DNA of 39,299 bases, taken from the sequence record PP079212.1. One strand, written 5' to 3'. The notes under the pieces were generated by a model. It had not been told where the DNA came from. It saw nothing but the letters and a program-made list of their open reading frames with translations, and did no database searches. This document shows positions 25,038-25,113 of the stretch, in pieces. Numbering within the stretch: the first letter of the stretch is position 1; each line of letters opens with the position of its first letter. The translations under genes were made by a program, and so were the position numbers. The DNA comes from Escherichia phage phiHAO2-2.

Positions 25038-25061
25038 CTTATTGAAGGGCCTATAGATTTA

Positions 25062-25084
25062 CCTTAACTATCACTATAGGGACT
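25062..25084 (+). promoter_or_regulatory. Phage RNAP promoter (phi13-like) embedded in an inverted repeat
   Basis: ACCTTAACTATCACTATAGGGAC; +1 G at 25079. Flanked by the 10-bp inverted repeat GGGCCTATAG (25047-25056) / CTATAGGCCC (25084-25093). Confidence 0.75.
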
Positions 25085-25113
25085 ATAGGCCCTTAAGGTT
25101 ATAAGGAGACTTT

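Follow-up and report, generated by a model that had tools for sequence, protein, structure and literature searches.

The closest described relative of the element considered here is the RNase III site R13 of bacteriophage T7, which lies between genes 12 and 13 beside the promoter phi13 (10.1101/106799; PMC6938266). R13 has been described as a weak site, and R6.5 of the same phage is listed as a strong one (10.1101/106799). For RNase III substrates in general, an idealised length of 22 bp has been given, and single-strand cleavage in internal loops is reported to leave stabilising hairpins at the 3' end (PMC3867540). The GenBank records of T7 examined list no RNase III features, and the comparison was therefore based on the Dunn and Studier coordinates for ten T7 RNase III sites, which give position 27281 for R13. 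Since each of the ten positions is located 1-3 nt beyond the 3' end of the upper stem of a strong predicted hairpin, we consider the coordinates valid.

As far as the geometry is concerned, R13 of T7 has a 15-bp stem, formed by UUCUCCCUGUGGUGG with UCACUAUAGGGAGAA, whose 3' arm is the stretch from -8 to +7 of phi13, and position 27281 lies 1 nt 3' of it. R6.5 is composed of AAGGUCCCUA, a 26-nt loop containing phi6.5, and UAGGGGCCUU, the arms being located at -30 to -21 and +7 to +16 of this promoter. Below the upper stem, the cut in T7 is found at a distance of 1 nt in R13 and of 3 nt in R6.5 and the canonical sites.

The DNA analysed in the present study (a stretch of 39,299 nt, called the window throughout) is essentially the complete genome of a K1F-like phage (genus Kayfunavirus) belonging to the T7 family. 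When 2.2 kb surrounding the element were used as a query, the identity was 99.3% to Escherichia phage phiHAO1-1 and approximately 97-98% to vB_EcoP_F and K1F, and the genes of the window follow the order known from T7. According to the open reading frames and the annotation of relatives, the upstream gene is gene 12 (tail tubular protein B; 22680-25037, + strand), from which read-through RNA supplies the 5' arm of the hairpin, and the downstream gene served by phi13 is gene 13 (internal virion protein A; 25114-25590, + strand). Hairpin and promoter sit within the 76-nt gap between these two genes. A preliminary description of this locus had pointed out that T7 R13 is found near the equivalent position; this agrees with the literature, and the T7 hairpin overlaps phi13.

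The sequence CACTATAGG occurs in nine exact copies on the + strand of the window, all of them within the consensus ..CTAAACTATCACTATAGGRA. Since the copy at 25072 fits this shared consensus, the phi13-equivalent phage RNA polymerase promoter (-17 to +6) is assigned to 25062-25084 on the + strand, with +1 at 25079, exactly where the preliminary description had placed it. The identical promoter sequence is annotated as phi13 in EcoDS1. Around this promoter, there is an inverted repeat of 12 perfect base pairs, AAGGGCCTATAG (25045-25056) and CTATAGGCCCTT (25083-25094); the arms are 26 nt apart. The repeat noted earlier is therefore real, but the length of 10 bp given for it was too short; likewise, its right arm CTATAGGCCC is present, but at 25083-25092 and not at 25084-25093.

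The 5' arm AAGGGCCUAUAG (25045-25056, + strand) lies 8 nt past the stop codon of gene 12 and spans -34 to -23 relative to the promoter start. It is followed by the loop (25057-25082), inside which the promoter is contained from -22 to +4, and by the 3' arm CUAUAGGCCCUU (25083-25094), which represents +5 to +16 of the phi13 transcript and shares 2 nt with the nominal promoter. Most of the 3' arm is made up by the second copy of a tandem 9-nt repeat, ACTATAGGG followed by ACTATAGGC, at 25073-25090. With the promoter core itself, the 5' arm can form just 7 bp. The same 50-nt element is also present in K1F (NC_007456, 25304-25353) and in EcoDS1.

The repeat at phi13 is the sole perfect inverted repeat in the window that has at least 12 bp and a loop of at most 60 nt. 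Dinucleotide-shuffled sequences contain on average 0.14 such repeats (13% of the shuffles have at least one somewhere), and a helix of at least 12 bp spans a given position at 0.8% of random positions. Folding of the RNA from 25030 to 25115 yields -28.6 kcal/mol (z -3.55), and the hairpin region is within the ten most structured 110-nt segments of the genome. In this fold, the upper stem of 12 bp is followed by an internal loop that is asymmetric (UG versus AAGGUU, the latter on the 3' side at 25095-25100) and by two lower stems of 5 bp each, approximately 22 predicted base pairs in all, so that with 12 + 5 + 5 bp an intercistronic irregular hairpin of about two helical turns is predicted. The lower stems appear in both the MFE and the centroid structure, with their 5' halves at 25031-25043 (AGUCU, 25031-25035, and CUUAU, 25039-25043) and their 3' halves at 25101-25111 (AUAAG, 25101-25105, and AGACU, 25107-25111), all on the + strand. 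These predicted lower stems are weak and not clearly conserved, as flanks and register vary among relatives.

An RNA begun at 25079 carries the 3' arm only, and its structure is not significant (z +0.55 versus the above z -3.55 of read-through RNA), so that the proposed restriction of the hairpin to read-through transcripts holds. The 3' halves of the lower stems overlap the Shine-Dalgarno sequence of gene 13 (AAGGAG, 25103-25108), for which the probability of being unpaired in the window is 0.29 in read-through RNA versus 0.50 in phi13-initiated RNA. Occlusion of this Shine-Dalgarno sequence by the lower stem was considered as a function and dropped, since it was inconsistent over 18 relatives.

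A covariance model was built from nine T7 sites (R0.3, R0.5, R1, R1.1, R1.3, R3.8, R4.7, R6.5, and R18.5). When applied to T7, it finds all nine sites from which it was built, among them R6.5, whose loop has 26 nt, but misses R13. In the window, it identifies five canonical RNase III hairpins on the + strand with 29.8-54.5 bits and E-values from 3e-5 to 5e-12, namely at 600-652, 1200-1253, 5369-5423, 12507-12559, and 36190-36244, which by their positions are R0.3-, R0.5-, R1.1-, R4.7-, and R18.5-like, respectively. At 25031-25111, no match to the model was obtained with E-values up to 10. Since the model gives no match, the flanks and the lower stem of the element are not of the canonical type, and the phi13 hairpin is not a canonical-consensus RNase III site. 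However, this failure does not exclude cleavage, because T7 R13, the proven counterpart, fails in the same way.

A scan for AAGG...CCUU stems of at least 8 bp recovered R0.3, R0.5, R1.1, R1.3, R3.8, R4.7, and R6.5 of T7 and, in the window, 25045-25094. Near the right genome end (38993-39029), a further AAGG...CCUU stem, 9 bp long and closing a loop of 19 nt, scores weakly with the RNase III model (10.9 bits, E 4.6). No Rfam family attained its gathering score anywhere in the window, a result that is uninformative, since the five canonical T7-type sites were missed as well. In the papers searched, no information was found about RNase III sites of K1F-like phages.

Overall, we consider it fairly probable that the element is the Kayfunavirus counterpart of T7 R13, that is, a hairpin confined to read-through RNA and most likely cut by RNase III. 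The sequence, the fold, the asymmetry between the two transcripts, the position in common with T7 R13 and the conservation are observations of this analysis. The hairpin would form in transcripts that read through from upstream late promoters, and the host RNase III would most likely cut its 3' strand just below the 12-bp stem, by analogy to T7 at approximately 25095-25098. This cut would part the mRNA of genes 11-12 from the mRNA of gene 13 and onward. The stem-loop would then stay on the 3' end of the upstream RNA and most likely stabilise it as a barrier to exonucleases, and the gene 13 RNA would be left with a short 5' leader. Transcripts initiated at phi13, which possess only the 3' arm, would escape the processing. 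Such a processing interpretation is reasonable and fits the known biology of T7, and the element most likely represents a conserved feature of the ordinary kind rather than a novel mechanism.

It is also conceivable, although unlikely, that the hairpin is functional without being a substrate of RNase III. It could serve as a protective stem-loop at a 3' end or as an insulator between the folds of the gene 12 and gene 13 messages, with another nuclease cutting elsewhere. The hairpin is strong and conserved, and it escapes the canonical covariance model. Moreover, a 12-bp stem with a 26-nt loop remains below the idealised substrate of 22 bp (PMC3867540), and even the T7 counterpart is weak (10.1101/106799). 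However, a mapped RNase III site exists in T7 at the same position, the covariance model overlooks R13 of T7 likewise, and R6.5, which has an equal geometry, is listed as strong, all of which speaks against this reading.

For the analysis of the conservation, regions upstream of gene 13 were gathered from GenBank phages and from IMG/VR, covering many genera of the Studiervirinae. At least eight MFE pairs enclose the promoter in 67 of 72 distinct Studiervirinae sequences, a loose count, as several other promoters of the window are likewise enclosed by many MFE pairs; most of the exceptions are due to a wrongly picked start codon. Because the count is loose, we gave more weight to contiguous helices and to a swap test, which compares the longest helix with the phage's own promoter region where the cores differ. 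In this test, the window reaches 12 bp with its own region versus at most 9 bp with others, and the helices with the own region amount to 12 bp in CR8, 17 bp in Jarilo, 12 bp in fPS-59 and 15 bp in L110. The 5' arm is complementary to the own promoter core in phages of the T7, T3, K11/KP32, Berlin, Jarilo, fPS-59 and CR8 types. Judging from these sequences, the 5' arm appears to change across genera with different promoter cores so as to fit the promoter of its own lineage.

The location of the 3' arm differs between the groups. The promoter core itself is the 3' arm in T7, T3-like, KP32-like and CR8 phages, and in the Kayfunavirus-type phages and in Cornix the 3' arm is found just downstream of +1. 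In the window, it is accordingly not the promoter core plus initiation region, as in R13 of T7, T3-like and KP32-like phages, that forms the 3' arm, but the stretch from +5 to +16. The tandem 9-nt duplication shows how such a downstream 3' arm could have arisen. As an exception, in phages of the Dickeya phage Luksen type (L064-L066), we observed a GGCCCUUCGGGGCC hairpin upstream and a second small hairpin downstream, neither of which encloses the promoter.

Within the Kayfunavirus type, 18 distinct sequences were compared, with gp13 identities down to 63%. The 3' arm is invariant in all 18. The 9-bp core, GGCCUAUAG (25048-25056) with CUAUAGGCC, is unchanged in 17 of the 18 variants, and the sole substitution, A to G, still permits G-U pairing. 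Twelve of the 18 variants have lost the pair G25047-C25092, and the perfect 12 bp are therefore peculiar to the K1F subgroup. Compensatory covariation was looked for in these 18 sequences, and no pair is altered on both sides, so that the conservation takes the form of invariance only. The loops of the relatives contain three different promoter specificity regions, with the arms unchanged. Three IMG/VR sequences (L016, L022, and L024) have identical arms, but their loops contain other promoter specificity regions (ACTATTACACCCTCACTATAGGGA and AATATTTAACACTCACTATAGGGA), which implies that RNA polymerases of different specificity use a cassette that is conserved in other respects. A search of IMG/VR with the pattern GGCCTATAG-N20-30-CTATAGGCC resulted in 25 contigs, 22 of which represent the same K1F-like gene 12/13 junction; the other three are unrelated palindromes without a promoter. 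As regards conservation in relatives, which the preliminary description had named among its conditions, a promoter-enclosing hairpin is kept across the Studiervirinae and the 9-bp core is kept in the Kayfunavirus types.

These data also bear on the question whether the repeat has any function at all. One could assume that it is an evolutionary by-product, composed of the 9-nt core duplication and an older 5' arm of the R13 type, which has no function in this lineage. The tandem repeat is present, compensatory covariation is lacking within the genus, and a perfect 12-bp inverted repeat turns up somewhere in 13% of the shuffled sequences. However, the 5' arm is intergenic, just past a stop codon and without another obvious constraint, and yet its 9-nt core is invariant, whereas the adjoining coding and loop sequences vary. 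Furthermore, Cornix retains the architecture with different arm sequences, and almost the whole subfamily has a hairpin in this place. We therefore regard a mere by-product as very unlikely, and prefer the counterpart of R13.

There are further promoters in the window with structures around them. The phi6.5-equivalent promoter between genes 6 and 6.5 (core 16840, +1 at 16847) lies in a long imperfect hairpin at 16773-16888 with an 11-bp stem, AUAGUCAUAUC/GAUAUGACUAU, and an outer stem (-33.6 kcal/mol, z -4.46); in its sequence, this hairpin differs from the canonical RNase III type. The rightmost promoter, equivalent to phiOR (core 38606, +1 at 38613), is spanned by a 12-bp helix with G-U pairs, UUAUAAGUAGUU/GGUUACUUAUAG, at 38581-38592/38625-38636; phiOR of T7, in contrast, has no such helix. 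In addition, a perfect 10-bp inverted repeat, TAACTATAGG/CCTATAGTTA (38511-38520/38550-38559), is located just past the stop codon of gene 19. It is made of the promoter-core-like CTATAGG and, when 38495-38650 is folded (z -3.07), gives rise to a strong hairpin. Modules with a promoter in a hairpin comprise the phi6.5-, phi13-, and phiOR-equivalents of the window as well as phi6.5 and phi13 of T7.

The occurrence of such modules at three promoters of the window could be taken to indicate a role at the level of DNA, where a hairpin or cruciform would mark a promoter that doubles as a secondary replication origin, or would modulate the use of the promoter. Cruciform extrusion is disfavoured by a spacer of 26 nt between the arms, as is present here, and G-U pairs are tolerated in the stems of the relative L002, T7 and T3, which points to pairing in RNA. 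The secondary origins of T7 do include phiOR and phi6.5 (PMC8373140), and the single-stranded DNA of the element also folds (-11.4 kcal/mol, z -3.51), but phi13 is not named as an origin in the literature searched. A function in the DNA is therefore, in our view, very unlikely as well. The last alternative, an attenuator or terminator that stops phage RNA polymerase arriving from upstream and thereby makes the expression of gene 13 dependent on phi13, is extremely improbable and was rejected, since, although a stable hairpin does precede gene 13 in read-through RNA and automatic annotators called the equivalent hairpins of other phages (fPS-59, phiPsa17) terminators, the stem is followed by CCCUUAAGGUUAUAAGG without a U-run and the terminator scan is blank at the site, whereas the clear terminator-like hairpin of the window, with its U-run, sits after gene 10.

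The attenuation suggested in the preliminary description is consequently not supported. In detail, the scan found nothing terminator-like at 25045-25110, and the 3' tail of the stem (CCCUUAAGGUUAUAAGG; AAGGUUAUAAGG) lacks the U-run of a class I terminator. In fPS-59 and phiPsa17, the annotators had separately placed a terminator that overlaps the promoter at the gene 12/13 site. The hairpin after gene 10 (approximately 21957-21997) is G+C-rich, is followed by a U-run 3' of the major capsid gene and corresponds to a Tphi-like late terminator.

The presence of a promoter-in-hairpin module at several sites might have a more general meaning, although we think this rather improbable. It could represent a distinct and reusable design of the T7 family, in which the placement of the promoter in the loop frees the stem from the promoter specificity, and such modules may double as secondary origins. 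This placement would be possible because of the duplication of the 9-nt core. If this were true, promoters could be swapped without breaking the structure, as is seen in the relatives, whose identical arms are combined with three types of promoter specificity.

For the element as a counterpart of R13, the main relevance lies in annotation and in phage engineering, since K1F-like phages are a therapeutic and engineering chassis. At their gene 12/13 junction, a promoter is nested in a conserved hairpin of the processing type. Edits next to the stop codon of gene 12 or between +1 and +16 of the phi13 transcript could alter the processing and the stability of the mRNA. A modest evolutionary point is that nearly all Studiervirinae have the R13 hairpin, which appears to shift with the promoter of each lineage.

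The comparison with the known sites of T7 summarises what kind of element is present at phi13. Like R13 of T7, the hairpin lies in the gap between genes 12 and 13, it encloses phi13, where that of T7 overlaps it, and in both phages the two arms occur together in read-through RNA only. Unlike in the window, the T7 stem comprises 15 bp including G-U pairs and uses the promoter itself (-8 to +7) as the 3' arm, whereas the window uses for this arm a near-copy of the core that lies downstream (+5 to +16), so that the promoter through +4 is located in the loop. Furthermore, the arms in the window start with AAGG and end with CCUU, and R13 of T7 is the site reported as weak.

The AAGG...CCUU upper stem, the 26-nt loop holding a promoter and a 3' arm that ends at +16 are features shared with R6.5 of T7. 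However, R6.5 sits between genes 6.3 and 6.5 and has canonical flanks, with ACUC before and UACGAUUAU after the stem, and it reaches 51.5 bits with the covariance model, whereas the hairpin of the window obtains no score. The canonical T7 sites of the R0.3, R0.5, R1.1, R1.3, R4.7, and R18.5 type are, like the present element, intercistronic irregular hairpins of the coding strand with an upper stem that starts with AAGG and ends with CCUU, and an asymmetric internal loop on the 3' side is predicted here as well. They differ by their loops of 3-5 nt versus 26 nt in the window, where neither the flanks nor the lower stem agree with the canonical consensus AgugauAcACUc...UAUgAgUaucacU. The element of the window thus has the geometry of R6.5 at the position of R13.
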